A program made the position numbers and the translations under genes. The notes below the pieces were generated by a model, which was not told where the DNA came from, did no database searches, and saw only the letters and a program-made list of their open reading frames with translations. Below, in pieces: positions 3,967 through 47,491 of a DNA stretch of 64,000 nt (positions are counted from its first letter, which is position 1; each line of letters opens with the position of its first letter). The stretch comes from a virus: positions 1-64,000 of the IMG/VR virus record IMGVR_UViG_3300046804_001743. One strand, written 5' to 3'.

Positions 3967-4586
3967 GTCTTATAAGCAAGGACCATAAAACATTTTGCCA
4001 ATGGTATTACAACGACACAGAATATCATCGAGGCCAGAATCAAGTTGTCGATCCTGCATTAATGGAAGAAAAATGGTTAAGGGAAGTAAACTACATTACA
4101 CAAATGCGTAATACTTTTCCTGACCTTGTCCCAAATATTACTAATATCGATTTAGAAAGGCGCAGACTGTACTTTGAAATCGACGGACCAGACTTTTGGC
4201 AATTAGCAGGCCCTACTATACAAGACTACGATAGTGTACTTCCAGATTGGCGTGAGCAAATGCTAAACATTTTTAAAGCGCACAAGGCATTAGGCATTTA
4301 CAAATACAGCTTGCATCCTAGTAGTTACTTTGTTGTTAACGGTAAACTCAAAAGTATTAACTATTTCTTTTGTTATAGAGATCAAGATCCTAATATTAGT
4401 ATTCGTAGTGTGTTAAGCCATATAAGTGAAGACAGGCAAGCAGACCTATTTCCTAAAATGGCTGCAATGGGCATTAACGTAGATGCTCCTACTAGTTTTA
4501 AAGATATACAGATGTTAGCATTTGAAAGTTTCAAAACAAACTTCCCCGCTGACTTTATGGAAGAAGCTAAAAGTATCTATGAATAA
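3891..4586 (+). CDS. hypothetical protein
   Basis: ORF ends in an ATGAATAA overlap with the next radical SAM gene. Confidence 0.45.
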   Translation: MITGYEYYYNDVPGKGLCRNNLIYTSLISKDHKTFCQWYYNDTEYHRGQNQVVDPALMEEKWLREVNYITQMRNTFPDLVPNITNIDLERRRLYFEIDGPDFWQLAGPTIQDYDSVLPDWREQMLNIFKAHKALGIYKYSLHPSSYFVVNGKLKSINYFFCYRDQDPNISIRSVLSHISEDRQADLFPKMAAMGINVDAPTSFKDIQMLAFESFKTNFPADFMEEAKSIYE

Positions 4587-5739
4587 AACATATTGTGCTT
4601 TGCCATTTAGAGAAACAATGCTTGTGCCAGGAGATGTGCTATTGTTATGCTGTAGACACGACACTAATGTAATCATAGAAGAAAATTTTGAAAAAAGTTT
4701 TAAGTCTGGCAAAATACAAGAAATACGAGAATTGATGCTAGAAGGTAAGCCCGTCGCTGGTTGCGAACAATGTTATATAGAAGAAGAGCAAGGTGTAGAA
4801 TCGATGCGTCAACAAAGCATAAAGAAATACGGTGTTGTTGAGGATATCGAACTACAGGGAATACATATACAATTTGATAACGTTTGTAATTTAAAATGTA
4901 GGATGTGTACTTCTACTTCAAGTCATTTACTTCACAACGAAGAAACAGAATTATATGGTAAAGCTATTAGTTGGCAAAAGTTTGTAGTAGCAGATAGGTA
5001 TAAAGAAATTGATACTTCTAAATTAACAGTTATAAGACTGCATGGTGGCGAACCATTTATGAGCAAAAGGGCTGAGGACTTTTTTAAAAGTATTACAAAG
5101 TCAGGCCGTATTAATCAAGTCAGCATTGTTATACCTACTAACGGAATGATTAGACCATCTAATGATTTCTTAGAAGCATTAGAAAATTGCAATGTTTTAT
5201 CTATTGCGGTTAGTATTGATGCATATGGTGGATTTAACGATTATTTTAGAAGTAAGTCAGAATTTAATACAGTGATAGAGAATTTAGATTTCTTTTGCTC
5301 ACTAATTGATTCTAGAAAACCTGGGACTACTAACATTAGTGTTGTTACAACTGTTAATGTATATAACGTAAATAAGTTAACCGAATTAGATTCGTTTTTA
5401 ACTTCGCGTTATAACAATTTAAAATTAGTAAAGTCAATGCTACACGGCCCTGACTACCTACGAATTTCTTGTTTACCAAAAGAATACAAAGATAAAATTC
5501 GCCATACTTTAGAATTATATCCCGATGTTCTAAAAATGTTAGACAAAGAAGATACAAACTACTTTGAAGAATTTATTTTTTATCATAATACTTTAGACAA
5601 ATTAAGACATGAGTCTCTAGAAAACTTTAATATAGAGCTTTCTCAGTATATTAAGTCTTACAAAGTTGCTAAAGAAATAACAACAGAAAGCATGGCTAAC
5701 TTCTACAATTTTGTGGACCCAGGAATTTTTAATGACTAA
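4579..5739 (+). CDS. radical SAM enzyme with Cys-rich N-terminal domain
   Basis: N-terminal YCALPF...LLCC...GCEQCY domain, then CNLKCRMC (CxxxCxxC) and LHGGEPF. Start at the ATG overlapping the upstream stop. Confidence 0.8.
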   Translation: MNKTYCALPFRETMLVPGDVLLLCCRHDTNVIIEENFEKSFKSGKIQEIRELMLEGKPVAGCEQCYIEEEQGVESMRQQSIKKYGVVEDIELQGIHIQFDNVCNLKCRMCTSTSSHLLHNEETELYGKAISWQKFVVADRYKEIDTSKLTVIRLHGGEPFMSKRAEDFFKSITKSGRINQVSIVIPTNGMIRPSNDFLEALENCNVLSIAVSIDAYGGFNDYFRSKSEFNTVIENLDFFCSLIDSRKPGTTNISVVTTVNVYNVNKLTELDSFLTSRYNNLKLVKSMLHGPDYLRISCLPKEYKDKIRHTLELYPDVLKMLDKEDTNYFEEFIFYHNTLDKLRHESLENFNIELSQYIKSYKVAKEITTESMANFYNFVDPGIFND

Positions 5740-6706
5740 ACCCTACTTAAAACTTCTTGATATCTATTACGGAGCAAAGTGTAATCTTTCTTGTAATCAA
5801 TGTGATACAAGAAGCGATGTTATTAGAACAGCAGATAACGATCCTAATATTGAAACAATATTAGAAGGAATAACTTTAGCAAAAGAAAAATTCGAAATTG
5901 ATTTGTATAGTGTACTAGGAGGAGAGCCGTTACTTTATCTAGATAAGATCGATATCATACTCGAACACATTCGAAAAATAGATCCTAATGCAAAGATACA
6001 ATTTTCTACCAATGGTACATTACTTTCTAAAAAGATAGACGACGTTGTTAGCATTATGCAAAAACATAATTGTGGACTATTTGTCTGTAACCATTTTGCG
6101 GCATTTGATGTAGATATGACTGCAAGAATAACTGATAGTGTAGACTATCTAGTTAATCGCCTAGGGTTATCTAGAGGAGATGCTAATAAATTCTTTAAAG
6201 AATTTATTCAATTAGATAATCCAAGAAAAGATCCGTTTTTTCAAAAGTGGATTAAACAACACGAAGATTACTTTTTAGGTGAGCAACCAGACGACCATTA
6301 CTATCATAACGGTAATATCTTTGTGCATTTTAGACCGCAATATGATTTTAAAAAGAATCATTACATGAAAGATGGAAAACCTAAACCTCATATGACAGGT
6401 CTTCCTCATATATCTTTTAAAGAAGGATGCAGTAGTGTTTTATGTAACTTTTTAATAGATAAAAAAATTTATAAGTGTGCGGCATTGGGAACTTTAAAAA
6501 AGTTCTTAGAGTTTCATGGAAGTTTAGATGATCCAGATTGGAAAAAATACTTAGACTACAAGTGTTTAGATTTAGAAACTTGCTCCGAAGGTGATGCATA
6601 TAAATTCAGTATTGGTAAATTTTGTGCAGTTGCAGAATGCGACATGTGCGGAACTAGCAGTTTTAAAAGAACAGAAGAGTTTGTAATAAATGTACACAGT
6701 CGTTGA
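5732..6706 (+). CDS. radical SAM enzyme with C-terminal Cys-rich (SPASM/twitch-like) region
   Basis: CNLSCNQCDT motif and VLGGEPLLY. C-terminal cysteines C..C...C..C.C. Confidence 0.75.
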   Translation: MTKPYLKLLDIYYGAKCNLSCNQCDTRSDVIRTADNDPNIETILEGITLAKEKFEIDLYSVLGGEPLLYLDKIDIILEHIRKIDPNAKIQFSTNGTLLSKKIDDVVSIMQKHNCGLFVCNHFAAFDVDMTARITDSVDYLVNRLGLSRGDANKFFKEFIQLDNPRKDPFFQKWIKQHEDYFLGEQPDDHYYHNGNIFVHFRPQYDFKKNHYMKDGKPKPHMTGLPHISFKEGCSSVLCNFLIDKKIYKCAALGTLKKFLEFHGSLDDPDWKKYLDYKCLDLETCSEGDAYKFSIGKFCAVAECDMCGTSSFKRTEEFVINVHSR

Positions 6707-7244
6707 ATGGCGGGAAGATTTAGACCTTACTGCATTTTATAAAGAGGCAGAAGAAAAAGGATTTGCTAATAATAGCAGTCAGCGTGTGATGATTGATTGT
6801 TTTAGAAATGAGCAAAAATGGAACGCTTGGATTCTGTACGAAGACAGTAATGCAATTGGTAGTGTTGCCGCTCACTCGTTTGACGACGTCATGGGGCCCG
6901 GTAGTTATAGGATACTTACAAGATGTTGTGTTCTACGAGGTGCAAGATCAAGTGGTGGAATGATGACTGCTAATGTTGCTATAGGACAACATCAAAATTT
7001 AACTGATCAATTTTTATTACCGGCCTGTATTAACTGGGCAGGCAACAACGTGTATGCAACATCCAACGAAAGCAAAGTTGCTAGCCAACGGTTTGTGCAT
7101 AGAACTTATTTTCCCACTTTAGAAAAAATAGGTGTTGTAGAAAAAGTCAAAGATGTTTTTTACAGAGGAACTGAGCAAACAGTATGGAAAATACATGTTA
7201 ATAATTTCTATGAGAATTTAAATCGTTATCCTAGATGGATTTAA
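6690..7244 (+). CDS. hypothetical protein (184 aa)
   Basis: ORF between radical SAM genes. No motif recognised. Confidence 0.4.
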   Translation: MYTVVEWREDLDLTAFYKEAEEKGFANNSSQRVMIDCFRNEQKWNAWILYEDSNAIGSVAAHSFDDVMGPGSYRILTRCCVLRGARSSGGMMTANVAIGQHQNLTDQFLLPACINWAGNNVYATSNESKVASQRFVHRTYFPTLEKIGVVEKVKDVFYRGTEQTVWKIHVNNFYENLNRYPRWI

Positions 7245-8166
7245 TAGGAATATTTTTAAATTTCTTTTTAAAGTTCGGATCAAGTGTAAACTTTATGTTG
7301 TGTAATTTAACGTCCTGTTGTTTGTCAAAGGCGCATAGTTTACATACTTCTATCGACTGTTTTAAATCGTACTCGATAAATTTCTTAACTGCATCATAAC
7401 CGTCAAGCGGGTCACACGGTTTATATTTTTCTAAAATCTCCTGTGCTTCAGGCACATACTTTACTTGATGTTTGGCTTCAGGGTAATTTGTAGTAGCCGG
7501 ACAATGGTACATTAATCCGTGTTGTATATTGTATTCTGTATGCCATCCACACGCTTCAAAACTCTTTTCTTGATCGCCTCCCATATGGAAGTGAACAGTT
7601 CCGTCTTCTACACGTTGATGATATGGTTGGGCAAATCTTGTAAATTCTTCTAATCTTAAAATTAGTTTGTTGTTTAACAAATACTTTATTGCCTTGTTTT
7701 GTTGTAGTGGAATATATTCCTCTTCAATTACCTGCAAAGAATCCACCCAGGGTTCGAGAACTGCAAGTGCATCTTCTTTCATTTCTTGGAACTTTTCTTC
7801 AGAATCATAGTGGCAAGCAACTCTAAGATGTGCATTACCATCGCTAATTATTAACCTAGCTAGATCAATACGCTTTCGTAATCTTGTTCCGTTGGTTGGA
7901 ATCTCAATGTGTGCGTTAGGCCATAGGCGCCTAATATTTAAAAACCATTCATCTAAGTTAGGATGTAAAAACATCTCGCCGCCTGCAAACGCAACATTGT
8001 CAGTATCTAAATACTCTGCCCATCTTTCAAAACGATCCTCGCTATCAGTCCAGTTAAAGTTTCCAGTAAAGTCATAACAAGCCAAGCCACCGCAATGGCT
8101 GCAAGTTAAGTTGCAAAGGTTGTTTACTACAACCGAAAGATATGTATCAAGTTTAATTTTTTGCAT
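7231..8166 (-). CDS. radical SAM enzyme (SPASM/twitch-like C-terminus)
   Basis: CNLTCSHC and FAGGEMF. The C-terminal motif IPIKSI is shared with the 16159 paralog (IPIKSV). Confidence 0.75.
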   Translation of the reverse strand: MQKIKLDTYLSVVVNNLCNLTCSHCGGLACYDFTGNFNWTDSEDRFERWAEYLDTDNVAFAGGEMFLHPNLDEWFLNIRRLWPNAHIEIPTNGTRLRKRIDLARLIISDGNAHLRVACHYDSEEKFQEMKEDALAVLEPWVDSLQVIEEEYIPLQQNKAIKYLLNNKLILRLEEFTRFAQPYHQRVEDGTVHFHMGGDQEKSFEACGWHTEYNIQHGLMYHCPATTNYPEAKHQVKYVPEAQEILEKYKPCDPLDGYDAVKKFIEYDLKQSIEVCKLCAFDKQQDVKLHNIKFTLDPNFKKKFKNIPIKSI

Positions 8167-8761
8167 TTGTAATTTGTGAAACTTCTAATGTTGGATTAAT
8201 TCTTTTAAGTTCAGATACCAAGTGCGGAGTTAACTTCCATCTAAATTCAACTTGTCTTATTGTAGGTTTCTGTGCCCAGAATATAATAGTGTCAACAATG
8301 TCATCTTTAGGTGTTGTGTAATCGCTGATAAAAGAAAACGGATTATCAGAATCTACTACGGTTCCTTCAATAAACCCTAAATCTAAATGTAGTAACGGAA
8401 TTCCGTTAGGATCTAAGCTAATACGTCTACATGCATCTGCTAGTTCTTGCTTATCATGCACATACTGAGTAGGTATAACATCTGGATAGAAGCGACTTAC
8501 ACTACCCATAACAACCATCATATCTACTTTGTCTTTAAGTGCTTCTAGTAATTTTAATTGCTGACGATCTCTATAGGCGTTATTAATGAATAGTTCACAA
8601 CCGCTAGCTTCATCTATTATACGATCAAAGTCTTTGTCGATGTCATAACCGTTGCTACGGCTCATACCTATAATTTCTCTACAACTACCTTCTTTAAATT
8701 TTTCGTAGATAGCTTTACCAATGCCGCCAGTATGACCAGTGATAATAATCTTTTTATCCAT
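8153..8761 (-). CDS. short-chain dehydrogenase/reductase (SDR)
   Basis: MDKKIIITGHTGGIGK Rossmann motif and an NNAY motif. Confidence 0.6.
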   Translation of the reverse strand: MDKKIIITGHTGGIGKAIYEKFKEGSCREIIGMSRSNGYDIDKDFDRIIDEASGCELFINNAYRDRQQLKLLEALKDKVDMMVVMGSVSRFYPDVIPTQYVHDKQELADACRRISLDPNGIPLLHLDLGFIEGTVVDSDNPFSFISDYTTPKDDIVDTIIFWAQKPTIRQVEFRWKLTPHLVSELKRINPTLEVSQITNAKN

Positions 8762-9212
8762 TCGGTTCTCCGTGTACAAATGATACACAAGTTACTTTAG
8801 GGTTAGCTAACCAAAAATCAATAGTTTTGCCTATTAGCTCTGGGTTATTATAACTGTCCCCTGTTAAATCTAAAAGTAAGAAATCTGTTTTGTTTTGTGT
8901 ATTAGCAAGTTCTAACACACGTTGTTTCAATTCTTTTTTATGCTGACTATATACAGGCATGTTATGATCTGTGTAATCAGCGGCAACACTACCCATAACA
9001 ACCATCCTACTGATTTTAGAATACAAATTGTTAACTAGATCTATCTGAATACCGTTGCCATATGCATTGTTAATATACAGATCGCAACCTAGTGCAGGTG
9101 CTATCTTATCGTCTCCACGATTCAATTCGATAACAGTATGCCCTTTACTACTAAAGTAATTTGTTAGTTCTTTACCTAAACCCCGTGTTGTGCCCGTAAT
9201 TACTATTTTCAT
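8754..9212 (-). CDS. SDR-like protein (short paralog)
   Basis: MKIVITGTTRGLGK and YINNAYGNG. Paralog of the previous gene. Confidence 0.5.
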   Translation of the reverse strand: MKIVITGTTRGLGKELTNYFSSKGHTVIELNRGDDKIAPALGCDLYINNAYGNGIQIDLVNNLYSKISRMVVMGSVAADYTDHNMPVYSQHKKELKQRVLELANTQNKTDFLLLDLTGDSYNNPELIGKTIDFWLANPKVTCVSFVHGEPNG

Positions 9213-9214
9213 AC

Positions 9215-9760
9215 TTACCACAGATTTAAAATATATTTTGGTTCTAATCCGCAGTTACTGCCAGCATGCCAGTATCTCCTATCGTCCCATTTAAATGTGG
9301 CGCCTTGTGGTTGATTATAAAAGCAACGACCTTCAGCAATAAAAATATGACCAAACTTTGGTTTTCCTATATGACAATGGTATCTAACCTTTGGAGGCAA
9401 CTTTGACAGTTCTTCTTCGTGGTCATTAACATCCCAATGCCACGGAGCAAAATGCCCAACATCTACTTTACTGATCCATGCAGTATGGTAGTTTTCAATT
9501 TTAAATATTTCACAAAACTTTGCTACTGATCGCTCATCAAATTGTTTTCCTGGAATGTACATACTCCAACCTACTGTACCACCTTCAGAGATATTTTTGT
9601 ATTTTGCACGTTCCCATAAGTTAGCTACTTCGTCTAAGCCAGGAATGTTGTCACCTTTTTTGTGACTAGGTCCAATGTACTCCGGCGATGTATTAGCACA
9701 CTGGAGAATTATTTCATCCCAGCTGATCTGATCAGCACAATTTCCAATGTATTCAATCAT
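9215..9760 (-). CDS. cupin-type oxygenase-like protein
   Basis: HWDVNDHEE ... WHAGSNCG (HxD...HxAxNxG signature shared by five paralogs). Confidence 0.45.
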   Translation of the reverse strand: MIEYIGNCADQISWDEIILQCANTSPEYIGPSHKKGDNIPGLDEVANLWERAKYKNISEGGTVGWSMYIPGKQFDERSVAKFCEIFKIENYHTAWISKVDVGHFAPWHWDVNDHEEELSKLPPKVRYHCHIGKPKFGHIFIAEGRCFYNQPQGATFKWDDRRYWHAGSNCGLEPKYILNLW

Positions 9761-10371
9761 CTCGGCTTTCCTAAAAAATGAAACAGATAATAAGGCTCAT
9801 ACCCACAGTTAGTGCCAGCATGCCAGGTTTTATAATCATTCCATTCGTAAATCTCATGCTGTGCAATATTATAAAATGCATCTTGTCCTTCTAACAACAG
9901 TACATGACCATCTTGCGGTTTGTCCATAAATGCTACCCAACGTTTTAATTCGCCTTCTGCAAGCCACTCTTTTTCTCTATCTTCTACATCCCAATGATAA
10001 GGAACACATCGTCCAGGCCAGAGCTCGCTAACAAATACACGCCTTGGATCTGCGTTTACTAAGTCTGCAAACTTGTTCTGCACTTCTATATCAAAATGCA
10101 CACCAGGATAGTAATCGTACCATTCGATTAAAGATAAATCATAGCCAGCATCATTCCATAATTTAATAACTTCTCGATATGATCCAAGTAAAGCAGGATC
10201 TTCCTGCCAGCTTGATTCTGACCTGTCTACTACTGTTTTCACAGAATTAAAATCTCCGTCAGAACTGTTTCTGCAGATTTTTACAATTTCATCCCAATCA
10301 ATAATACCCTTAGTTGTTCCAACGTATTTCGCCATAAATGTATTCCAAAGTTTCTCCTGCCCACTTAACAT
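9757..10371 (-). CDS. cupin-type oxygenase-like protein (tandem paralog)
   Basis: HWDVEDREKE ... WHAGTNCGYEP. About 35-40% identical to the 9215 protein. Confidence 0.45.
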   Translation of the reverse strand: MLSGQEKLWNTFMAKYVGTTKGIIDWDEIVKICRNSSDGDFNSVKTVVDRSESSWQEDPALLGSYREVIKLWNDAGYDLSLIEWYDYYPGVHFDIEVQNKFADLVNADPRRVFVSELWPGRCVPYHWDVEDREKEWLAEGELKRWVAFMDKPQDGHVLLLEGQDAFYNIAQHEIYEWNDYKTWHAGTNCGYEPYYLFHFLGKPR

Positions 10372-10984
10372 GATTACGCATAGACTGCTGGTACATTACT
10401 TCTAAATTATAATGTGTTTCCGTACGCACAGTTTCGTTTAATCTAAACCTAGCAGTTTCGTGTACTATTGCATCCATGTATTTTGTTTCTATTAACGGAT
10501 TAGACGATGAGATGCACCCATACCAATCAATAGTTTTCATAGTTCCGCTCTTATCTAAAAAATGACAATGCGGATACATTGTAAGTTTATAAATTCCTTC
10601 GTGAACTAAATCTAACATAATGTTCTTGAGGGGCTCACGCCATTCGACATGTTCTCCTCTATGTAGCATTTCATTAAAGGTGTAACCGTTCCATTCAAAA
10701 AATATTTTTTTATTTTTGTAATCGATATCTAAGATGTTTGGTGCATACTGCTTATGTTTAAATTTTAGCAGATGATTAACTTCGTTTTGAAAGAACCACT
10801 CACACACTTCTTCATTATACAAATCTCTAGTTTCATACAATCTTTGATATTTGTTTTGCCAGTCATAGTTTGCACAAAACACAGTCCTGTCTGGACTAAT
10901 CAAAGGTTCGTAAGTTTGTTGTGCAAGACATAGCTCGCCATCGTCACCGTACTTAAAGAAAGGTTTCCAATTATCAATGTTCAC
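10310..10984 (-). CDS. hypothetical protein (possible kinase-like fold)
   Basis: ORF only. The HCHFLDKSG segment gives a weak kinase-like hint. Confidence 0.35.
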   Translation of the reverse strand: MNIDNWKPFFKYGDDGELCLAQQTYEPLISPDRTVFCANYDWQNKYQRLYETRDLYNEEVCEWFFQNEVNHLLKFKHKQYAPNILDIDYKNKKIFFEWNGYTFNEMLHRGEHVEWREPLKNIMLDLVHEGIYKLTMYPHCHFLDKSGTMKTIDWYGCISSSNPLIETKYMDAIVHETARFRLNETVRTETHYNLEVMYQQSMRNHVKWAGETLEYIYGEIRWNN

Positions 10985-11645
10985 GCTTAACTTTGAACCT
11001 TCTTAAATCTAAGTCTTGTAATTCTTCTACTACATGTTCTGCCAGACCAAAAGTAACAACTGTATCCTTATAGGAAAAGTTATCTAATGTACCTTCTTGA
11101 TTCTTGCGATTAAGCCAGGGGCTTATAATTGTATCGAATTGATAACGATAATCAAACTGTTCGTAAGCAGGTGTAATTTCAAAATTTATTAAATTTGTAA
11201 AATGACTATGTTTTAAAGGTTCTCTTACTACTAACTGTTTACGAGCAACACTACCATAATTTCCTGCTGTATGAATTTTATTAGCAAACATATAGCGCCA
11301 ATGCCCGTCTAGACGTTGGTTGTACATTTGCTGTTCTTCTAAGTCTATCAAAAAGGAATGTACTCCTGATAAGTTTAAATGCCAGCGATTGTCTATGTCG
11401 GCATGTGCCATATAACTTTGATTAGGCTCAAGCGTGATGACACGAGCCTCTCCTATTGTATATGGAAGCGTTCCTAAAACCTGCTCCCAAGGAGTACCTC
11501 TATATTCTTCTTTGAGTTCCCATTTATCATAAAAGAAGTTTCCTGTAGGCTTGTTAAGTGCTACACGTTCTCCTTCTAAAGGATGTTCAGTTAAGGCTTG
11601 TTGAATTAACTCTTTTGGGCATTGCCACATGGTTACGTTTATCAT
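10974..11645 (-). CDS. cupin-type oxygenase-like protein
   Basis: AHADIDNRWH ... IHTAGNYGS matches the HxD...HxAGxNxG family signature. Confidence 0.45.
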   Translation of the reverse strand: MINVTMWQCPKELIQQALTEHPLEGERVALNKPTGNFFYDKWELKEEYRGTPWEQVLGTLPYTIGEARVITLEPNQSYMAHADIDNRWHLNLSGVHSFLIDLEEQQMYNQRLDGHWRYMFANKIHTAGNYGSVARKQLVVREPLKHSHFTNLINFEITPAYEQFDYRYQFDTIISPWLNRKNQEGTLDNFSYKDTVVTFGLAEHVVEELQDLDLRRFKVKREH

Positions 11646-11684
11646 GAAATATTTATATGCTACTATAACTCACTTAAATATATC

Positions 11685-12362
11685 ATGGATTTGTATCTAA
11701 ACCCAAAATGGACAAAGATTGGCATCAGCATCAGCGGAGGTGCTGATAGTGCATTATTGGCATTTTTAATATGTTCCAATACCAGTGCTGACATTCATTT
11801 TACAAATCAAATTAGACTTTGGAAAACTCGTCCATGGCAAGAGTATGTAGCCGACAATGTTATTAATTGGTTTAAAGATCGATTCACAAATAATTTTTAT
11901 GTACACAAGAATCTAATACCTCCTGAATTAGAATGGGCTGACAAAGGTCCAACTATAGTTGACGAATATGGAAAGTTAAAAAGTGGTAACCAAATTATAT
12001 TAAGATCCCACAACGAGTACATTGCACACAAATATAACCTAGAAGCGTTATATGGCGGTATTAATAAGAATCCAGATATTGATATCGAAGGATCGTTAGA
12101 TGACAGAAACGAAGGGCATATACCTCCGCACTTTGTACATAACGGTATTGACATTTGTCACCCATTTGTGTATACTAGAAAAGATTGGATAATCAAACAG
12201 TATTACAAACACAACATCTTGGATTTGCTAGAACTCACTCGCAGTTGCGAAGGAGAGTTTGAAGGAATAGATTATACAACTTATACACCTGGACAATATG
12301 TTCCTGTTTGTAAAAAATGTTTTTGGTGCAAGGAAAGAGAATGGGCTCACCAAGGCTTATAA
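11685..12362 (+). CDS. PP-loop ATP pyrophosphatase (QueC/TilS-like adenine-nucleotide alpha hydrolase)
   Basis: KIGISISGGADSALLA is the SGGxDS PP-loop. The start could be upstream (the ORF is open from 11622). Confidence 0.6.
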   Translation: MDLYLNPKWTKIGISISGGADSALLAFLICSNTSADIHFTNQIRLWKTRPWQEYVADNVINWFKDRFTNNFYVHKNLIPPELEWADKGPTIVDEYGKLKSGNQIILRSHNEYIAHKYNLEALYGGINKNPDIDIEGSLDDRNEGHIPPHFVHNGIDICHPFVYTRKDWIIKQYYKHNILDLLELTRSCEGEFEGIDYTTYTPGQYVPVCKKCFWCKEREWAHQGL

Positions 12363-32446: not shown

Positions 32447-32482
32447 TAATTAGACTGTATAATACTTACACTAAGTTAATTA

Positions 32483-34055: not shown

Positions 34056-34432
34056 TGACAAACCCATTTCGTGATCAAGAAAAATTTATGCGGGCCTGTG
34101 ATCAGACCGTAGACGAACATAACGAAGCACAATACAAATTGTACCTCGACCTTATGGAAGAGGAATGGAAAGAACTCCAAGTAGCACTGGATAAAGGTGA
34201 TCGTGTAGAACAACTGGATGCACTACTTGACTTTATCGTTGTTACCACAGGTGCTATTCATTCAGCAGGATTCGATGGCGAAGGCGGCTGGAAAGAAGTT
34301 ATGAAGACAAACTTTGCCAAGGTTGATTCAGAGACTGGCAAAGTTCGTAAGCGTGAGGACGGTAAGGTTCTCAAACCCGTGGGGTGGACTCCCCCTGACC
34401 TAAAACCATTTGTTAGTAAGGAGAACAAATAA
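34055..34432 (+). CDS. mazG: MazG-like nucleotide pyrophosphohydrolase
   Basis: About 125 aa, all-alpha NTP-PPase pattern (EE..E..D with an acidic cluster). Confidence 0.65.
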   Translation: MTNPFRDQEKFMRACDQTVDEHNEAQYKLYLDLMEEEWKELQVALDKGDRVEQLDALLDFIVVTTGAIHSAGFDGEGGWKEVMKTNFAKVDSETGKVRKREDGKVLKPVGWTPPDLKPFVSKENK

Positions 34433-38460: not shown

Positions 38461-39713
38461 TTTATGTAAGTACAGAAGCAGACCATCCGTTCTTTGTAGA
38501 ATTTAAAAATATAAAGGATGCTAAACTAGAACCAGAATCAGTTTACTGGCACGATCAACATGATCATCATATGAGGAATGTGTCGTTTGAAGACTTTTTA
38601 GACGAAATACATTGGGATCATATACGCAGAGATCCTACTGCCAAAATTTTATTGCATTATAGTGATGAGTATTTTAATATATTTGATTTAGAAATATATG
38701 TAAACACTATAAAGAAAAAACAAATTAATCCAGCACAAGTCTTTTTTATTGTAATCGATGAAACATGGAAGACTTGGGTTATTGATGAGTTTAGAAAGAG
38801 AGGAGTAGTTGGTATAAATGTTACTGATTATAACTTGCTTTTAAAAAAATCTGTTAGCGTAAAAAAATTAGATCTCATTGATGTAGTTGCCAACGGAGAT
38901 AGTATTAAGGGTTATTTTAAAAATCTATTATCAATTCCATTTATTCCAAAACCTGCGCCTGCAATAGAAAAAAAGTTTAGCGCATTTAGTAGAAGGTTTG
39001 ACGAGTGGCGCCTGCAGTTGTTCACTGAACTTTACCTCAAGGGTTTATTAGATCAATTTAAGTATACATTCAATAATATTGATCCGTATGCTGGAGGTGT
39101 TGGATATAATAAAATAAGAACATACGAACACGATGAAATTTTTAAACTACTGGCAAGCAAAAACTATAATATAGGTAAATTAAAAAATTGGGTAGATAAT
39201 ATGCCCTATACTTTTCCAAAGATTGATGTAACACACAAGTGGAATTTAAGATCTAACGAGTGGATCGAAAACACTGCCTTTCATTTGTTAGTAGAATCAC
39301 ATTTCAATCCGTTTAATCATTTTGAAGAATACAAAGACAAGTATGGTCCAAGAGAATTTGCACCATCTCTTATAACAGAAAAAACATGGAAAGTTATTAC
39401 ATCAGCTAGACCGTTCATTGTTTTTTCAACACCATATTTTTTAGACGACATGAGAGCATTGGGTTATAAAACGTTCCATCCTTTTATTGATGAATCGTAC
39501 GATAAAATTGAAGACCAGTACGAACGACTACACGCAATAGTAAACGAAATTGAAAGATTGAACAACCTACCAAAAGATGAGTTTGACTATTCATTTAAAG
39601 AATGTTATAATATAGCGTTACATAATCAGAAAGTATGTGAAAAGTTAACCAAAAGGTTAGTGTATAAAGATGAATTTGCCTGGGTTAACCAGTATTTGCA
39701 AAAAGGAAAATAA
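38457..39713 (+). CDS. hypothetical protein, paralog of 41839 (possible glycosyltransferase-like)
   Basis: Shared C-terminal block LGYKTFHPFIDESYD... with the 41839 protein. Confidence 0.45.
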   Translation: MIYVSTEADHPFFVEFKNIKDAKLEPESVYWHDQHDHHMRNVSFEDFLDEIHWDHIRRDPTAKILLHYSDEYFNIFDLEIYVNTIKKKQINPAQVFFIVIDETWKTWVIDEFRKRGVVGINVTDYNLLLKKSVSVKKLDLIDVVANGDSIKGYFKNLLSIPFIPKPAPAIEKKFSAFSRRFDEWRLQLFTELYLKGLLDQFKYTFNNIDPYAGGVGYNKIRTYEHDEIFKLLASKNYNIGKLKNWVDNMPYTFPKIDVTHKWNLRSNEWIENTAFHLLVESHFNPFNHFEEYKDKYGPREFAPSLITEKTWKVITSARPFIVFSTPYFLDDMRALGYKTFHPFIDESYDKIEDQYERLHAIVNEIERLNNLPKDEFDYSFKECYNIALHNQKVCEKLTKRLVYKDEFAWVNQYLQKGK

Positions 39714-40742
39714 ATGTCTAAAACAATTTTAGTAACGGGTGGAGCAGGATTTATTGCACATCACCTTATCGATAAACTACTAGCAGAAACTGACTATCGT
39801 ATTGTTACCCTAGATCGATTAGACTACAGCGGTAATCTTAATCGCCTTAATGAAGTAGTAATGGCACATCCTGTACAAGAAAGAAAACGTGTTCGTGTTA
39901 TTCATCACGATCTTAAAGCAGAGTTAAACTCGCAGATTCGTAGTCACATTGGTAAGGTAGATATGATTGCTCACCTAGCCGCTGGTAGTCATGTCGATCG
40001 TAGTATCAAGTATCCTATGGAATTCGTACAAGACAATGTTGTCGGAACTGTAAACTTAATGGACTATGCTCGCAACCTAGACAATTTAGAATTGTTTGCT
40101 TACTTTAGTACAGACGAAGTGTTTGGTCCGGCACCGGATGGCATTAGTTACAAAGAAAACGATCGATACAATTCAACTAATCCTTATAGTGCTAGTAAGG
40201 CGGCCGCAGAGGAAATGGTTGTAGCATACGAAAACACTTACGGGTTGCCTGCAATCATTACACATACTATGAACGTGTTTGGTGAGAGACAGCACCCCGA
40301 AAAGTATATCCCAATGTGTATTAAACGTGTGCGTGACAATCAAAAAATTACAGTACACAGTAATCCAGAAAAGACCAAAGCGGGATCTCGCCATTACATT
40401 CATGCTCGAGATGTTGCTGATGCTCTCATGTTCTTATACAATTACGATCTAAGTAAACTGCCCACAACATATGGCGGTGCTAAATGTCAAAAGTTTAATA
40501 TTGTCGGTGCTGAAGAATTTGATAACTTAGAGTTGGCACAGTTTATTGCGGACACACAAGGAAGACCACTTAACTATGAAATGGTTGATTTCCACAGTTC
40601 AAGACCAGGCCACGACTTGCGTTATGCGTTAGATGGTAGTAAAATGAAAGACATGGGGTGGACCCCGCAGCCGGTAAAGAAAAGACTTGCAGAAGTTATT
40701 AACTGGACTTTGGCTAACGATCGTTGGTTGGGAATTGAATGA
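39714..40742 (+). CDS. NAD-dependent NDP-sugar epimerase/dehydratase (dTDP-glucose 4,6-dehydratase-like)
   Basis: ILVTGGAGFIAHHL Rossmann motif and YSASKAAAE (YxxxK). Confidence 0.85.
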   Translation: MSKTILVTGGAGFIAHHLIDKLLAETDYRIVTLDRLDYSGNLNRLNEVVMAHPVQERKRVRVIHHDLKAELNSQIRSHIGKVDMIAHLAAGSHVDRSIKYPMEFVQDNVVGTVNLMDYARNLDNLELFAYFSTDEVFGPAPDGISYKENDRYNSTNPYSASKAAAEEMVVAYENTYGLPAIITHTMNVFGERQHPEKYIPMCIKRVRDNQKITVHSNPEKTKAGSRHYIHARDVADALMFLYNYDLSKLPTTYGGAKCQKFNIVGAEEFDNLELAQFIADTQGRPLNYEMVDFHSSRPGHDLRYALDGSKMKDMGWTPQPVKKRLAEVINWTLANDRWLGIE

Positions 40743-41059
40743 AACACGTAAGATTTGAAAACACAGGACGCCGAGGTTGGTTTGTTGGCGGTTTTCCCGA
40801 AGCCGCATTTCAAACTGACCTTGCGGAAGTATGTTATTGTACTGAGCCAGCTGGCACTGGTATTAGTCATTACCATACTGTTTGCACTGAAACTGTTTTT
40901 ATAGTTTCTGGAAGAGTAACATGTCAAGGTAAAGAATATACTAGCGGAGACATCCTTGTATTTGAACCCGGAGACATTAATGATTGTGTCTACGAAGAAG
41001 AAACTGTTATGATCGGAGTCAAAACTCCAGCAGGTAAGGATGATAAGGTATTGGTATAA
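40739..41059 (+). CDS. small cupin-like protein
   Basis: 106 aa. Beta-rich. Sits between sugar-modifying genes. Confidence 0.35.
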   Translation: MKHVRFENTGRRGWFVGGFPEAAFQTDLAEVCYCTEPAGTGISHYHTVCTETVFIVSGRVTCQGKEYTSGDILVFEPGDINDCVYEEETVMIGVKTPAGKDDKVLV

Positions 41060-41842
41060 ATGATTGTTAACTTAGACAAGATCAAGGATGCGTTTAGCAC
41101 ATTTCATAGTGCTGAACCTTTCCCCTATTGTGTAATTGATAATTTCTTTACAGACGAAATTGCAGAACAATTAGCGTTAGAATTCCCTAACTCTGATTCA
41201 GATGTTTTTAATGGAAACTATTTTAATCAGATTGAAATTAAAAAGACATGCAATATCTGGGACCGATTCCCTGCTACTACATACAATGTCCTAACATATT
41301 TAAATAGTACAGAGTTTTTAGACATATTAAAACCATTAGTTAAACAAGATATCTTGTATGCAGACCACGGACTTCACGGTGGTGGGTGGCATATACATCC
41401 ACCTGGCGGCAAGCTAAATGTACATTTAGATTATAGCATTCATCCTAAGATGAAAAAGCAAAGAAACTATAACTTACTAGTTTATCTAAATCCTAACTGG
41501 CAAGAAGGATGGGGCGGAGAACTAGGACTATGGTCAGATAAAAATAACAAGCCCAGTGAGTTAGTTAAGGTCCTTGAACCTAAGTTCAATAGAGGAGTTA
41601 TCTTTGACACAACCGCTAATAGTTGGCATGGTCTCGAAGTGCCTAATAGTTTTCCAGAAGGACAAGACCGTAAAAGTATTGCACTATACTATCTTACAGA
41701 ACCCCCAACGAATGTTAATACTAGAGGTAGAGCCCTTTTCTCCCCAAGTAAAGAACAAGAAAACGACCCTGAAGTACTAGAATTGATCAAAAGAAGATCT
41801 CAAGTATCCGCAGGAGATGTATCAACATGGAGTCGTTCATGA
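41060..41842 (+). CDS. 2OG-Fe(II) oxygenase
   Basis: NVHLDY (HxD), WGGELGLWSD, WHGLEVP. Confidence 0.6.
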   Translation: MIVNLDKIKDAFSTFHSAEPFPYCVIDNFFTDEIAEQLALEFPNSDSDVFNGNYFNQIEIKKTCNIWDRFPATTYNVLTYLNSTEFLDILKPLVKQDILYADHGLHGGGWHIHPPGGKLNVHLDYSIHPKMKKQRNYNLLVYLNPNWQEGWGGELGLWSDKNNKPSELVKVLEPKFNRGVIFDTTANSWHGLEVPNSFPEGQDRKSIALYYLTEPPTNVNTRGRALFSPSKEQENDPEVLELIKRRSQVSAGDVSTWSRS

Positions 41843-43182
41843 ACTTTGTATTTGAAAATTTAGAAACACTTGAAAATTTTGTAGAATGCCCTGATAAAAA
41901 TCCATCAGGTGTGAGAAGATTTACACCTAGTCCGTTAGTTATTACCATGGTAAGGTATCACCAGACTAACGAAAAATTTAAAAATATGGATTTTAAAAAC
42001 ATAGCTATCAGCAATGATCCTAGAAAATTTGAAAGATATGGAATAGCATCCGGAGTAACACATGCACCTCACGATTGGTGCGGACCCGATACACAAGGAA
42101 ATGGATTTGATAAGAATTTTGCAGATCGAAAATCTTTATTTGAATTTCTCAGTCCTGTTTATCTAACAGACCTTAGAACAGGTAAAGCAACTTTACTATT
42201 AGATCAGAGTCACGAAGGCTATCACGCTGATTGGTTATTTGATTGGTTTCATAATAGCTGTGAATTTTACAAAATTAATCCTACACAAATTATTTACATA
42301 ACAGGCGATATGGATGTGTATAGAAAATATTCGCTGTGGTGTGACGAAAAGAATTTAACAGATAGAATGTGTGTTGTACCATATGCACACTTTGAAAATG
42401 CTGTTTTTACAAATGATAACAATAGGACGACAATCTTTAACCTAGGCCGTAATCCAAACTTCAACGACCAGTACAAGTATAAAAAGAAAAACTTGAACAA
42501 AATTAAAACATTTAATGCTTTACAGAAACGCCCTAGAGCACATAGAATGTGGCTGTTTAAAGAACTGTGCCTAAATAATCTTTTAGAAAATAGTATTAGT
42601 AGTATGAATTGGTTTAAGTGGAGCCATACATTCTACATGAATAAAACTATGAACATAGAGGACTACGAAAATATTATAGGGTTAACTCCAATGCTTCCAC
42701 CTAATGCTACAGGAAAATACAAAGAAGAGTTAGATGTGTTTGCGAGCGGTGACAGTGGAAAGTATCAAATGGAATTTAATTCACAAATAACATTAGATAC
42801 ATGGTTTAGTGTAATCAGCGAAGCGTCGTTTGGTGAAGACACTTGCTTCATTAGTGAAAAAACTTTTAAACTAATCTGTGTTCATCATCCATTTATTATT
42901 TTTGGAAATAAGAATTCGTTACACTATTTGCGAGAACTAGGATACAAAACATTCCACCCATATATCGACGAATCATATGATACATTAGAGTGTTGGGAAA
43001 GATTAGATGCAATTATCAATAGCATTAAAAAAATAAATGCTATACCACAAGAAGAAAAGCTAGACTGGTTTTTAGGCATGAAGGACATTTTAGAGCATAA
43101 CTATAAAGTTATGAAGCGCAACTCTTTAGACAATGCTCCGCAATCTATGATAACAATTAAAGAATATTTTCAGGAAAAATAA
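41839..43182 (+). CDS. hypothetical protein, paralog of 38457 (possible glycosyltransferase-like)
   Basis: C-terminal LGYKTFHPYIDESYD... ATGA overlap. Confidence 0.45.
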   Translation: MNFVFENLETLENFVECPDKNPSGVRRFTPSPLVITMVRYHQTNEKFKNMDFKNIAISNDPRKFERYGIASGVTHAPHDWCGPDTQGNGFDKNFADRKSLFEFLSPVYLTDLRTGKATLLLDQSHEGYHADWLFDWFHNSCEFYKINPTQIIYITGDMDVYRKYSLWCDEKNLTDRMCVVPYAHFENAVFTNDNNRTTIFNLGRNPNFNDQYKYKKKNLNKIKTFNALQKRPRAHRMWLFKELCLNNLLENSISSMNWFKWSHTFYMNKTMNIEDYENIIGLTPMLPPNATGKYKEELDVFASGDSGKYQMEFNSQITLDTWFSVISEASFGEDTCFISEKTFKLICVHHPFIIFGNKNSLHYLRELGYKTFHPYIDESYDTLECWERLDAIINSIKKINAIPQEEKLDWFLGMKDILEHNYKVMKRNSLDNAPQSMITIKEYFQEK

Positions 43183-44202
43183 ATGTATAGAAAACAAATA
43201 GCTGAAATTAACGAAAGCATCAAGACAACTAAGAAGGCTATTATATCCCTTGGCTGTTCTTTTGTTCAAGGACAAGGGGCAGTTAATCCAGAATTATACG
43301 AAGAATACAAATGGAACTATGACGGACTTGGTGTTCCTCTTTATCTCAAACTTCCCGAAAAAGAAGAAAAAGAATTACTAAAGAAGTATCCATTAGTTAC
43401 TAAACAAGGCGACGAGCTGTTTTTTAGATTCATGGAATACGAAAATGCTTTTGTCAATGTATTGTGTAAAAAATACTTCAATGGAGAATATACTCCTATT
43501 AACTTAGGTCTAGCAGGATGCGGAAACAGAGGAACAATTAAAGAACTGTATTTCTATCCAGAGGTTAACTGGAACCAGCTTGAAGAAATTATAGTTATTT
43601 ACTGCCCAAGTGGTCCGGAACGATTTGACTTTATCAACGACCAGTGGATAGATCACGGTCATTGGTTATGCATGTGGCCGCATTATAAAGATAAAGAAGA
43701 CGGCCCTCGCAAGAATTTATGGAAGGGATACAGCGATTGCGTCTACTCTGAAAAGTTTGAGGTGCTAGAACAAATTGCACATATACAAGAATTGATGTTA
43801 TGGTGCAAGTATCATAATGCAAAACTAATAATCACTCCGGGCTTTGATAGAAGATACGAAAAAGACTACTTTAAAGCTTCTCTTAAAAAAGTTATAAATC
43901 GTTCTTCAGAAGGAACTGTATTAAAGCATGGAACTATTTTTCCATTAGACTTTGGACAGAAAGAAAATATTAATAAAATAATGGAATTGTGGCCCTGGGA
44001 TAGTATGTTTAAACCAGATGGCTACGAAACGTTTGCTGATTTATGTGTAGCACAAGAAAAGGTTAAAGACGATCATTTCTTTAACTACTTAGGAGCAGGG
44101 TCTCCTAATGGATGGATAACCGCATGTGCTCATCCTACTGCAAAAGGCCATGACTTATTTGCTAAAATATTACATAACCATATTACTAAAAACAAAAAAT
44201 GA
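43183..44202 (+). CDS. SGNH-like protein, variant GCS motif
   Basis: ISLGCSFVQGQG near the N-terminus and a C-terminal AHPTAKGHD block. Confidence 0.45.
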   Translation: MYRKQIAEINESIKTTKKAIISLGCSFVQGQGAVNPELYEEYKWNYDGLGVPLYLKLPEKEEKELLKKYPLVTKQGDELFFRFMEYENAFVNVLCKKYFNGEYTPINLGLAGCGNRGTIKELYFYPEVNWNQLEEIIVIYCPSGPERFDFINDQWIDHGHWLCMWPHYKDKEDGPRKNLWKGYSDCVYSEKFEVLEQIAHIQELMLWCKYHNAKLIITPGFDRRYEKDYFKASLKKVINRSSEGTVLKHGTIFPLDFGQKENINKIMELWPWDSMFKPDGYETFADLCVAQEKVKDDHFFNYLGAGSPNGWITACAHPTAKGHDLFAKILHNHITKNKK

Positions 44203-45101
44203 GAATCACACGAGTAAAAGAAACTGTAGGAACAATCACAGCAGACGATCCTGAAATGATCGAATCGTTTCGATTACGCAGTCCTGTTGTTGCAAAAAAT
44301 CCAATCGACTTAAAGTATTATTCTAATTATTACAACGGTAATACTGATCAAGGATCAATGCCGAGTCCAGGAGTTCATAAATTTCTAAACGGTAACGAGC
44401 GGGCACAGGCTAACCCAGACTATAAAGATTTTAGTTATTTCATAAACGATATAGGTTTTAGAGACCAATATCCTCCAAAAGAAACACAAGGGATATTTGG
44501 TTTCTTTGGATGCAGTATGACATTAGGCGAGGGTTTAGATACGGTTGATAATTTTCCGCATCGCGTATCTAAGCATTTTAACAAACAACATTTAAATCTT
44601 GGTTTGCCTGGTATCGGTGCATACAGGATTGCATTAATTTTTGCGGCGGCGGCAAATGTTTGGAATATAGAAACCGCGGTAGTTACCTTTCCTAACTGGG
44701 CAAGATTCCACTATGTTGACACTAAAAACAACATGAAACTGATTCATTTGCCTTATAGCATAGATAACAAGGAATGCGAAATTGTTAGAAATGACATCTT
44801 AAATGATTTTTCTGACCAGTATATGTTATCAGCTACCAAGGATGCAATAAATTATATTCTTATGGTTGCAAAATTAAAAAATATTAATTTAGTTTTATCT
44901 GCTTGGGACCCTGATGTTAGTAGAATTATAGAAGCAATCACAGGATATGATGTTCCTAAATACAACCTATGGAATCCTTTTAAGGAAAGGATACCTGGAG
45001 ATTTTGCCAGAGACTATATACACCCAGGAGTCAACATTGTTGATACCTATGTAGAAAAACTTAAAGACACAATCAATAGAAAACACTATGTCAGACTCTA
45101 A
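44199..45101 (+). CDS. SGNH-like protein, variant GCS motif
   Basis: FGFFGCSMTLGEG and DYIHPG (block V). Confidence 0.45.
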   Translation: MRITRVKETVGTITADDPEMIESFRLRSPVVAKNPIDLKYYSNYYNGNTDQGSMPSPGVHKFLNGNERAQANPDYKDFSYFINDIGFRDQYPPKETQGIFGFFGCSMTLGEGLDTVDNFPHRVSKHFNKQHLNLGLPGIGAYRIALIFAAAANVWNIETAVVTFPNWARFHYVDTKNNMKLIHLPYSIDNKECEIVRNDILNDFSDQYMLSATKDAINYILMVAKLKNINLVLSAWDPDVSRIIEAITGYDVPKYNLWNPFKERIPGDFARDYIHPGVNIVDTYVEKLKDTINRKHYVRL

Positions 45102-45987
45102 ACAATTAACCATTGTTATAGTAACTTACCACGGAGACTTTCCATTACTGGAAAGATGCCTAACTTCCTTTGAAAAATATATAAATCTAGATCAAGTTAA
45201 GGCTATTAAAATTATCCTTAACGATCTTCCTATATACACAAACGCATTGCAGAGTATTATAAACAAGTATACTAATTTAAAACTTGAATTAGTTTCGTCT
45301 GCAACATTAGAACCGGTTATTACAGAATATTTTAATTGGAATACACAACAACTTTTTAAGCTTCTAGCCTGTAATGTAGTTGATACTGAGTGGTACTTAA
45401 TACACGACTGCAAAGATTATTATGTCAAGCACGTAGACTTCTTTAAAGACTGTTTTACAGATGACGGCAGAGCTATCACAAAATTAGATCACACACAGTA
45501 TAGTGATTATAACAGACACGGGGGAGGATTTTTGCCCTTCAACCTGGCTTATGAAATTGCCTGTAATGTCTGGGGTATTAGCAGACAAGATACTGCCATC
45601 TGGCATTTGCCCACTGTAACACCGTTCTTTGTTAAAACAGATACAATGAAAGGTATGGTGCGTGAATTAAAATCTATGATAAGAGGGTTCTTTCCTTACC
45701 TATTTAATCTTGCTATAAATGAGCAACGTGTAGCAACTGAATTTTTACTTTATAGTGCATACTGTTTTAGTAAGAACCAATTAGCTGACTATGCTGACTG
45801 GAGTATTAATACTGCCTATTATAGTAAATTAAAACAATCAAAGGATCTAAGAATTTACTTCCCACCTAATCCACAAGAAAATGAAAAATATTTTCATAAC
45901 GGACAGATTTGGCAATTTAATGAAGGTACTTGGAAGCCTGCTGTTGCTACACATGTTTCTTATACAGAGGAAAAGTTAGATGAGTAA
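45088..45987 (+). CDS. hypothetical protein (possible GT-A glycosyltransferase)
   Basis: N-terminal LTIVIVTYHGDF resembles GT2 N-termini. Weak. Confidence 0.35.
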   Translation: MSDSKQLTIVIVTYHGDFPLLERCLTSFEKYINLDQVKAIKIILNDLPIYTNALQSIINKYTNLKLELVSSATLEPVITEYFNWNTQQLFKLLACNVVDTEWYLIHDCKDYYVKHVDFFKDCFTDDGRAITKLDHTQYSDYNRHGGGFLPFNLAYEIACNVWGISRQDTAIWHLPTVTPFFVKTDTMKGMVRELKSMIRGFFPYLFNLAINEQRVATEFLLYSAYCFSKNQLADYADWSINTAYYSKLKQSKDLRIYFPPNPQENEKYFHNGQIWQFNEGTWKPAVATHVSYTEEKLDE

Positions 45988-47491
45988 CTACAACCAAGCG
46001 GCAGACATCGCAGAACATCAACTAAAATTTATTAGCAAATCAATGTGCTATGCTAAGTGGGCACAAGTGTCTATGCACCTTACTAATGGCATGACACAGA
46101 GTTGTTACCATCCGCCGCTACATAAAATAGATACTGCACTATTAAAAGAAAATCCCAGCGCATTGCATAACACCGATCAAAAAAAGCAAGAGCGTAAAAT
46201 GATGTTAAAGGGCGACCGCCCAGCAGGGTGCGAGTATTGTTGGAAAATTGAAGATGTAGGCGGAAGAAGTGATAGAATTTATCGTTCAGGAGAATACTGG
46301 GCACAAAATGCTAGACTAGATATATTTGAAGCCATAGATACTGGCAACGTAGATCCGCGATATGTTGAGGTTAACTTTAATCAAGCCTGTAATTTTAAAT
46401 GTATGTATTGCAGTCCGCACCTGTCAACTGCATGGGAAGATGAAGTAGAAAAATTTGGACCTTACGAAGTACTAAACTCGTCTGGACAATTAACAGAACA
46501 CAACAACATCAATGCACTAAAGAGCAGTGGTTTCATGCCTCTAAAAGTTAGGCAAGATGAGAACCCATACGTAGAAGCATTCTGGCGTTGGTGGCCTCAG
46601 TTGTATAAAAAATTAGAAGTATTGCGTATGACAGGCGGAGAGCCGCTTATGGATGTCAACACATTTAAGGTGCTAGACTATATCTATCAGCACCCAAATC
46701 AATGGTTAGAAGTAAGTGTAACTACTAATATGTGCCCGCCTAAGCCGGAACTGTTTAACAAGTTTATTGATAGTCTAAAAAAATTAGAAGAAATACAAAT
46801 ATGGGAAGATAAAGAACGATTCAATCCTGGATCCGGTAATCACTGGTACGTAAACATGGCTGTTAAAAATTTTGCTGTGTTTGTTAGTTTAGATAGCGTA
46901 AGTGATCAAGCTGAGTATATTCGATCGGGTTTAGATTACACAACCTTACAAAAAAATGTAACACATTTATTAGACGACACTTGCAATACTACGCTGACCT
47001 TTATCAATACATTTAATGCTTTAAGTGTTCCTAAGTTCAAGGATTTTTTAAAATACATACTAGAGCTTCGCACAAAGTATAATCGTCAAGCTCAGGGTAT
47101 CAAATATATCCCAATTCACGATCCATACCATACACATCCAGATCACCAAGTACATCCAAGACAACGTGTATGGTTTGACGTACCTTTGTTAAGGAATCCT
47201 GCTTGGCAAAATATACATATATTGCCTGAAGAGTTTGAACAGTATTTAGATGATGCTATTAAGTTTATGGAAGATAATTTCGAAATGGGGAACTTTGATG
47301 GCTTTTACGATTTTGAAATTGAAAAAGTAAAAAGAAATTTAAAAATTATGAAGGAAAGAAATCCTAATCAAACTATTAACAGAAAAAATTTCGTAAATTA
47401 CTTCCAAGAGTATGATCGTAGAAAGAACACTAATCTAGTAAAAACCTTCCCAGAATTAGAAAATGTTTATAACGATTGGAGAAAAATATGA
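45980..47491 (+). CDS. radical SAM enzyme with Cys-rich N-terminal domain
   Basis: CYAKWAQ...SCYHPP...GCEYCWKIED, then CNFKCMYC and MTGGEPLMD. Confidence 0.8.
   Translation: MSNYNQAADIAEHQLKFISKSMCYAKWAQVSMHLTNGMTQSCYHPPLHKIDTALLKENPSALHNTDQKKQERKMMLKGDRPAGCEYCWKIEDVGGRSDRIYRSGEYWAQNARLDIFEAIDTGNVDPRYVEVNFNQACNFKCMYCSPHLSTAWEDEVEKFGPYEVLNSSGQLTEHNNINALKSSGFMPLKVRQDENPYVEAFWRWWPQLYKKLEVLRMTGGEPLMDVNTFKVLDYIYQHPNQWLEVSVTTNMCPPKPELFNKFIDSLKKLEEIQIWEDKERFNPGSGNHWYVNMAVKNFAVFVSLDSVSDQAEYIRSGLDYTTLQKNVTHLLDDTCNTTLTFINTFNALSVPKFKDFLKYILELRTKYNRQAQGIKYIPIHDPYHTHPDHQVHPRQRVWFDVPLLRNPAWQNIHILPEEFEQYLDDAIKFMEDNFEMGNFDGFYDFEIEKVKRNLKIMKERNPNQTINRKNFVNYFQEYDRRKNTNLVKTFPELENVYNDWRKI

Follow-up and report, generated by a model that had tools for sequence, protein, structure and literature searches.

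SPASM and twitch domains are defined in the literature as C-terminal extensions that follow the barrel of radical S-adenosylmethionine (SAM) enzymes (PMC9012708). In BtrN, a butirosin 2-deoxy-scyllo-inosamine dehydrogenase, the auxiliary [4Fe-4S] cluster is ligated by four cysteines (PMC9012708). Here we analyzed positions 1 to 64,000 of the IMG/VR virus record IMGVR_UViG_3300046804_001743 (the window), which derives from a large tailed phage and encodes five radical SAM paralogs, A to E (Table 1), with a cysteine-rich module ahead of the radical SAM core. All five match the NCBIfam model NF033640 over its full length (profile positions 1 to 397 or 398, 214–415 bits). This model, N_Twi_rSAM or 'twitch domain-containing radical SAM protein', has a curated cut-off of 170 bits. 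We give a probability of about 55% to the reading that the five are N-terminal-twitch radical SAM enzymes that tailor sugars or glycans, with the four-cysteine cluster serving as an electron relay. That they are twitch radical SAM enzymes of the N_Twi family is, taken by itself, highly probable.

The N-terminal module of five phage radical SAM paralogs

All five open reading frames (ORFs) are free of stops on translation, and the proteins share 20–36% pairwise identity, with D and E at 36%. In each paralog the CX3CX2C motif begins at residue 103–153, with ~90–125 residues containing four or five cysteines ahead of it. The core motif CN[LF]KCxxC is present in each, and GGEP, the GGE SAM-binding motif, is invariant. 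Pfam Radical_SAM (PF04055) matches all five, four of them above the gathering score and paralog E at 23.0 bits against 29.5. An AlphaFold2 model of protein A (predicted local distance difference test score 94.4, predicted template modeling score 0.91) has a barrel that resembles radical SAM structures, a partial TIM barrel. For paralog C, the ATG at 18512 is a more likely start than the TTG at 18524 chosen in the initial annotation, four codons upstream, because a 460-residue database protein (P0001) is 100% identical to the ATG version. A hidden Markov model (HMM) built from the five found no sixth full-length paralog in the window, and picked up six weaker radical SAM ORFs.

The initial annotation had recognized a common cysteine-rich module in the five N-termini, and the alignment of the paralogs together with the match to NF033640 from its first position bears this out, the likeness greatly exceeding chance. 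It had also held that the architecture could not be placed in a named family. There is an appearance of novelty: by Pfam alone three of the five are labeled only 'Radical_SAM', source databases label family members AslB, MoaA, PqqE or pyruvate formate-lyase (PFL)-activase, and literature searches turned up nothing on the family. However, a curated model of precisely this architecture exists in NF033640, and every one of the five proteins exceeds its cut-off at full length, which refutes the idea of an unnamed, novel radical SAM architecture and leaves it scarcely any probability.

What, then, is the module? The Pfam SPASM profile (PF13186) matches the N-terminus of B at residues 7–67 (E = 1.1e-7) and that of C at residues 25–103 (E = 1.5e-4), both over the gathering score. 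The alignment of the five paralogs shows invariant C6, C24/25, C62, C65, E69, S75 and R77 (protein A numbering), all retained in 120 homologs of 32–100% identity; E69, G72, S75 and R77 form a conserved stretch downstream of the CxxC. Exactly four N-terminal cysteines (6, 24, 62 and 65 of protein A) are conserved among these homologs, rather than the five to six first proposed, and Cys25, the second cysteine of the 'CC' doublet, is found in 80 of the 120. Aligning the five N-termini thus upheld the common module with its four invariant cysteines. The motif description needs similar trimming: 'C-x2-P-F/W' holds in A, B and C and not in D and E, which have C-x-A-K-W, and 'G-C-x-x-C' holds only in A, D and E.

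A profile of the five paralogs matches the C-terminal twitch region of BtrN (residues 157–242) with an E-value of ~1e-4, and, when the N-termini alone serve as the profile, their four invariant cysteines fall one-to-one on BtrN C169, C187, C232 and C235, in a match that is weak by itself. In the model of protein A, C6 is followed by strands at residues 12–16 and 20–22, C24, helices within residues 37–54, and C62-x2-C65. The order in the module is therefore Cys, β-hairpin, Cys, helices, CxxC, then E..G..S.R, and the order up to the CxxC is the twitch topology. Judged by sequence, the N-terminal module is a SPASM-type (half-SPASM) twitch domain, and the earlier suggestion that it could bind an auxiliary Fe-S cluster is likely to be right, given the SPASM matches and the alignment of its cysteines to those of BtrN. 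The initial annotation had also allowed that the N-terminus might turn out to be a common known domain, naming B12-binding and MTTase UPF0004 domains as examples; PF13186 and the BtrN alignment assign it to SPASM/twitch. Neither of the two domains named was matched in Pfam at E-values up to 1.

Four-cysteine C..C...CxxC motifs can bind zinc, so the module could instead hold zinc in a structural role, or be a degenerate domain without a cluster. We consider this very unlikely, since both Pfam SPASM and NF033640 assign the module, its four cysteines align with those of the BtrN twitch region, and its order of secondary structure agrees with that of a twitch domain.

The four conserved cysteines precede CX3CX2C in all five proteins, which places the twitch domain N-terminal to the core and not at the C-terminal position of the literature definition. 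The full SPASM motif (7–8 cysteines, CX9-15GX4C...CX2CX5CX3C...C, for the auxiliary clusters AuxI and AuxII) is absent, as only four non-core cysteines are conserved. Past the core, each paralog has only one to three cysteines, none of them conserved, and for this reason we agree with the initial annotation that there is no SPASM tail; Pfam SPASM likewise matched none of the five C-termini.

Membership in the MoaA, anSME, PqqE, viperin, QueE or BlsE families was considered and rejected, as all scores lie far under the family cut-offs. Among equivalog models, the highest MoaA score is 42.5 bits (cut-off 284) and BlsE scores 20 (cut-off 400), and neither PqqE nor anSME figures in the equivalog matches listed for the five paralogs. 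The AslB, PqqE and MoaA labels in source databases are over-annotations.

The window also encodes an unpermuted cousin of the five (19100-20077), for which Pfam SPASM matches at the C-terminus (residues 233–313). NF033640 is the top-scoring model for its core (57 bits over profile positions 109–337). A set of 29 homologs conserves the four positions of its twitch (Cys233, 252/253, 309 and 313), and the cousin shares the 'PCC' doublet with the N_Twi proteins. Using hhalign, the N_Twi profile aligned to the cousin core-to-core with an E-value of 5e-15, and crossed, N-terminus to C-terminus, with an E-value of 0.0044. The domain orders of the two types would fit a circular permutation, for which the statistical support is modest.

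Genomic setting and distribution

The window holds 12 radical SAM genes: the five N_Twi paralogs, the cousin and six short genes. Ten of them lie within ~17 kb (4500–21100), where at least four types can be told apart: N_Twi, the ~300-residue paralogs starting at 14203, 15084, 16159 and 20065, the 5711/7231 pair, and the cousin. The radical SAM and sugar gene cluster lies upstream of the tail-fiber genes. In the second cluster (36342–47491) a trio is duplicated, comprising an N_Twi enzyme (D/E), a prolyl 4-hydroxylase (P4H)-type 2-oxoglutarate (2OG) oxygenase (37717/41060) and a GT-B glycosyltransferase (38457/41827), with the copies 28–36% identical. The only gap in this second cluster is filled by a small cupin ORF, which may be a keto-sugar isomerase or epimerase.

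Table 1. Coordinates of the radical SAM genes and neighboring features in the window.
Feature	Coordinates	Strand	Remarks
N_Twi radical SAM paralog A	4579-5739	+	386 aa; twitch Cys 6, 24, 62, 65; CX3CX2C 103-110; NF033640 213.8 bits
N_Twi radical SAM paralog B	12951-14210	+	419 aa; twitch Cys 7, 25, 64, 67; CX3CX2C 123-130; NF033640 322.3 bits
N_Twi radical SAM paralog C	17130-18512	-	460 aa; twitch Cys 21, 39, 96, 99; CX3CX2C 153-160; NF033640 415 bits
N_Twi radical SAM paralog D	36342-37733	+	463 aa; twitch Cys 23, 42, 84, 87; CX3CX2C 139-146; NF033640 309.5 bits
N_Twi radical SAM paralog E	45980-47491	+	503 aa; twitch Cys 23, 42, 84, 87; CX3CX2C 137-144; NF033640 308.3 bits
Predicted twitch segment, A	4579-4848	+	
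Predicted twitch segment, B	12951-13235	+	
Predicted twitch segment, C	18138-18512	-	
Predicted twitch segment, D	36342-36671	+	
Predicted twitch segment, E	45980-46309	+	
Radical SAM protein, unpermuted cousin	19100-20077	-	325 aa; C-terminal 4-Cys twitch: Cys 233, 252/253, 309, 313
Short radical SAM gene	5711-6706	+	
Short radical SAM gene	7231-8166	-	
Short radical SAM gene	14203-15087	+	
Short radical SAM gene	15084-16181	+	
Short radical SAM gene	16159-17133	-	
Short radical SAM gene	20065-21030	-	
P4H-type 2OG-Fe(II) oxygenase	37717-38460	+	
Paralog of 37717-38460	41060-41842	+	
Paralog of 37717-38460	2448-3047	-	
GT-B fold glycosyltransferase, fucosyltransferase-like	41827-43182	+	no Pfam/PHROG match
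Paralog of 41827-43182	38457-39713	+	
Nucleoside diphosphate (NDP)-hexose 4,6-dehydratase-like short-chain dehydrogenase/reductase (SDR)	39714-40742	+	TIGR01181 247 bits, under cut-off 365
Cupin ORF	40739-41059	+	106 aa; Cupin_2 sub-threshold; after 4,6-dehydratase-like gene
Cytidylyltransferase-like and mannose-6-phosphate-isomerase-type cupin fusion	47476-48243	+	sugar-nucleotide enzyme; directly downstream of paralog E
Second fiber or virion protein	49559-51022	+	matches PHROG virion and tail-fiber families
Giant tail-fiber ORF	55239-63998	+	>2,900 aa; runs off window; PHROG tail-fiber matches

The PHROG matches of the fiber and virion ORFs are to phrog_4527, phrog_5342 and phrog_677. The giant ORF lies in a stop-free frame (55233-63998, + strand) whose N-terminus, MAKQIIDIGVQGNDGTGDSIRESF..., and internal regions match PHROG tail-fiber families. 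Many genes neighboring the paralogs have no match in PHROG and Pfam. No tRNAs were found in the window, and there were no Rfam matches.

Within the radical SAM cluster lies a PP-loop ATPase, weakly QueC-like with an SGGxDS motif (11622-12362, + strand), and a QueD/PTPS gene (51489-52040, + strand) is found 40 kb off; the pair may indicate a connection to 7-deazaguanine or the amidation of a sugar. Three small related ORFs on the minus strand (1957-2493, 9215-9760 and 9757-10371) give a faint Asp/Asn β-hydroxylase (cupin) signal, and two related loci (L084 and L085) hold clear Asp/Asn β-hydroxylase (PF05118) genes. Auxiliary genes unusual for a phage, at 28742–35130 and 52327–54577, encode an SPFH/Band 7 protein, ClpP, the UV endonuclease UvdE, an ATP-dependent DNA ligase, a Bax inhibitor-1 family membrane protein and an Fe/Mn superoxide dismutase.

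A scan of 1.84 billion representative proteins returned 6,794 clusters at E ≤1e-30 (clustering at 50% identity), and IMG/VR has more than 500 matches to the N_Twi family. Among the 147 top family proteins retrieved, 36 are at least 700 residues long, and most of these contain two full N_Twi modules with a CX3CX2C apiece. Such proteins, of 750–1,400 residues with the two modules fused in tandem, account for roughly one in four of the top family representatives (P0382–P0519), one of which has three matched stretches. Homologs in cultured phages occur only in jumbo phages, Ralstonia RsoM2USA (344 kb) and Vibrio K566/K567 (255 kb), and KVP40 has a structural match. A GTDB genome scan returned just a 3.6-kb metagenome-assembled genome fragment and one match at 29% identity. 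The window itself had no match to cultured phages by megablast or to plasmids by tblastn.

We then compared 80 related loci, 79 on IMG/VR viral contigs and one on a metagenome contig; because they were the highest-scoring ones, the frequencies serve only as an indication. Family members are usually arrayed in tandem: 65 of the 80 loci have two or more N_Twi genes, with up to ten per ~20 kb, often head to tail. The commonest partners are short radical SAM genes (31 loci), fucosyltransferase-like GT-B glycosyltransferases (31), the C-terminal-twitch cousin (29), a protein of the type encoded at 18499 (23) and SDRs (18), making the glycosyltransferase the commonest partner outside the radical SAM genes. 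Metagenome contigs as long as 384 kb carry near-identical relatives. In a relative that is ~90% identical (L003, 7690-10007, on a 384-kb contig), the 18499-type gene and paralog C are separated by four extra genes, including a 2OG oxygenase. The gene content of the cluster thus varies among close relatives, as L003 carries these genes relative to 17130–19110 of the window. The locus of a close relative also has a UDP-glucose dehydrogenase, an epimerase and a CMP-sugar-synthetase-like gene.

Phage radical SAM genes have been read as pyrroloquinoline quinone (PQQ) biosynthesis genes in a Lake Baikal virome study, where phage genomes carry them with methionine adenosyltransferase and S-adenosylhomocysteine/methylthioadenosine (SAH/MTA) nucleosidase, a set read as PQQ-related (PMC7678222). 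In published phage papers, genes of this sort go under loose names, those of PQQ or 'antibiotic' maturases. For the N_Twi family the PQQ reading is unsupported. An SAH/MTA nucleosidase would remove 5'-deoxyadenosine as well.

Proposed chemistry and substrate

From known twitch enzymes, the core cluster would be expected to cleave SAM to a 5'-deoxyadenosyl radical, which would abstract a hydrogen atom from the substrate. The auxiliary clusters of BtrN and SuiB have been proposed to accept or relay electrons, and the predicted N-terminal [4Fe-4S] cluster would most likely act in the same way. Ligated by four cysteines, it could not bind substrate as the MoaA cluster does.

The gene context points to a sugar or glycan substrate, an assignment that we hold tentatively, at slightly less than even odds. 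In the window the paralogs sit upstream of the tail fibers among two GT-B, a 4,6-dehydratase-like SDR, a nucleotidyltransferase-cupin fusion, a cupin and 2OG oxygenase genes, and GT-B genes occur in 31 of the 80 loci. The likeliest task of the enzymes would therefore be radical tailoring, of an oxidation, epimerization or decarboxylation type, on nucleotide sugars or on an assembled glycan. Each paralog would take a different step or position, and the target would probably be a glycan on the virion or on the infected cell surface.

Several observations weigh against this reading. Most SPASM/twitch enzymes act on peptides, and the P4H-like and Asp/Asn-hydroxylase-like oxygenases in the clusters fit a protein substrate as readily as a sugar. 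No publication on NF033640 or the N-terminal-twitch family was found, and the family has no characterized member. When searched against the Protein Data Bank, a profile of the N-terminus only reached BtrN with an E-value of 0.28, with one chance match ranked above it. The permutation signal is modest, as the crossed hhalign E-value indicates, and an hmmsearch with the re-ordered cousin gained only 0.5 bit.

The first two of these points bear on a different substrate. The five could be protein or peptide maturases, introducing epimerizations or cross-links into structural proteins of the phage, for example the giant tail fiber, alongside the protein-hydroxylase-like 2OG oxygenases. The peptide maturases SkfB, anSME, SuiB, EpeE and CteB, all SPASM/twitch enzymes, are among the top structural neighbors, oxygenases of the P4H and Asp/Asn-hydroxylase types are a recurring element of the clusters, and the tail-fiber genes are just downstream. 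However, Pfam and NCBIfam scans detected no RRE or other peptide-recognition domain in the five paralogs. Inside the clusters there is no precursor-peptide-sized gap and no small precursor ORF, the sole gap encoding the cupin, although a distant precursor is still possible. The most frequent partner outside the radical SAM genes is a glycosyltransferase, and fiber homologs were not found adjoining the arrays in other loci. We therefore regard a protein substrate as unlikely.

Action on free nucleotides or phage DNA, as a base or sugar hypermodification that shields the genome from host nucleases, would agree with the nucleotide or nucleoside substrates of MoaA, viperin, BlsE and QueE, which are neighbors by structure and sequence. 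The QueC-like ATPase and QueD/PTPS would also fit, as would a resemblance to T4 BGT. The similarities to QueE, viperin and MoaA nonetheless fall far short of the family cut-offs; the searches of the window turned up no DpdA/TGT, deoxynucleoside monophosphate hydroxymethylase or kinase; and five to ten diverged paralogs per locus are a poor fit to a single DNA modification. This explanation is improbable, more so than a protein substrate.

Returning to sugar or glycan tailoring, the arrays of permuted N-terminal-twitch enzymes, GT-B glycosyltransferases and 2OG oxygenases might together form a combinatorial system that diversifies a glycan or glycoprotein on the virion or host surface. This broader proposal is speculative, and we think it rather doubtful as it stands. 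If true, combinatorial tailoring would give phages a way to vary their surface and would hold radical carbohydrate chemistry that is new; no description of such a system was found.

Comparison with known systems

The N_Twi family is very large, and in large environmental phages it is expanded in arrays next to glycosyltransferases. Our search for a biochemical study of a member found none, and neither the phage array expansion, nor the fusions, nor the partnership with glycosyltransferases was found described in the literature. The architecture is already catalogued in NCBIfam. A single characterized member could tell whether the twitch still relays electrons from the other end of the barrel, and could reveal new radical sugar chemistry and what these phages decorate. 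The family assignment also corrects mislabels common in metagenomes, namely AslB, MoaA, PqqE and PFL-activase.

How do the five proteins compare with systems that have been described? Compared with NF033640 there is no structural difference: they have its N-terminal four-cysteine twitch, its CX3CX2C core and its helical C-terminal region. That model was made for annotating bacterial and archaeal genomes, whereas the copies here are phage-encoded and occur in multi-paralog arrays. With BtrN, the archetypal twitch enzyme, they share a four-cysteine auxiliary [4Fe-4S] site, here a prediction, and both the cysteine spacing and the surrounding sequence align with the five paralogs. The substrate of BtrN is carbohydrate-like.

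The likeness to BlsE (cytosylglucuronate decarboxylase) and MoaA, twitch-type enzymes that act on nucleoside or nucleotide substrates, is more limited, with only ~195 residues aligning at 17–22% identity. The auxiliary cluster of MoaA has three cysteine ligands and binds the substrate. The SPASM maturases (anSME/AslB, PqqE and SkfB) belong to the same superfamily clade and have an auxiliary-cluster domain of the same origin. Unlike them, the five paralogs are without a second auxiliary cluster, a C-terminal seven-cysteine motif, an RRE and a precursor peptide.

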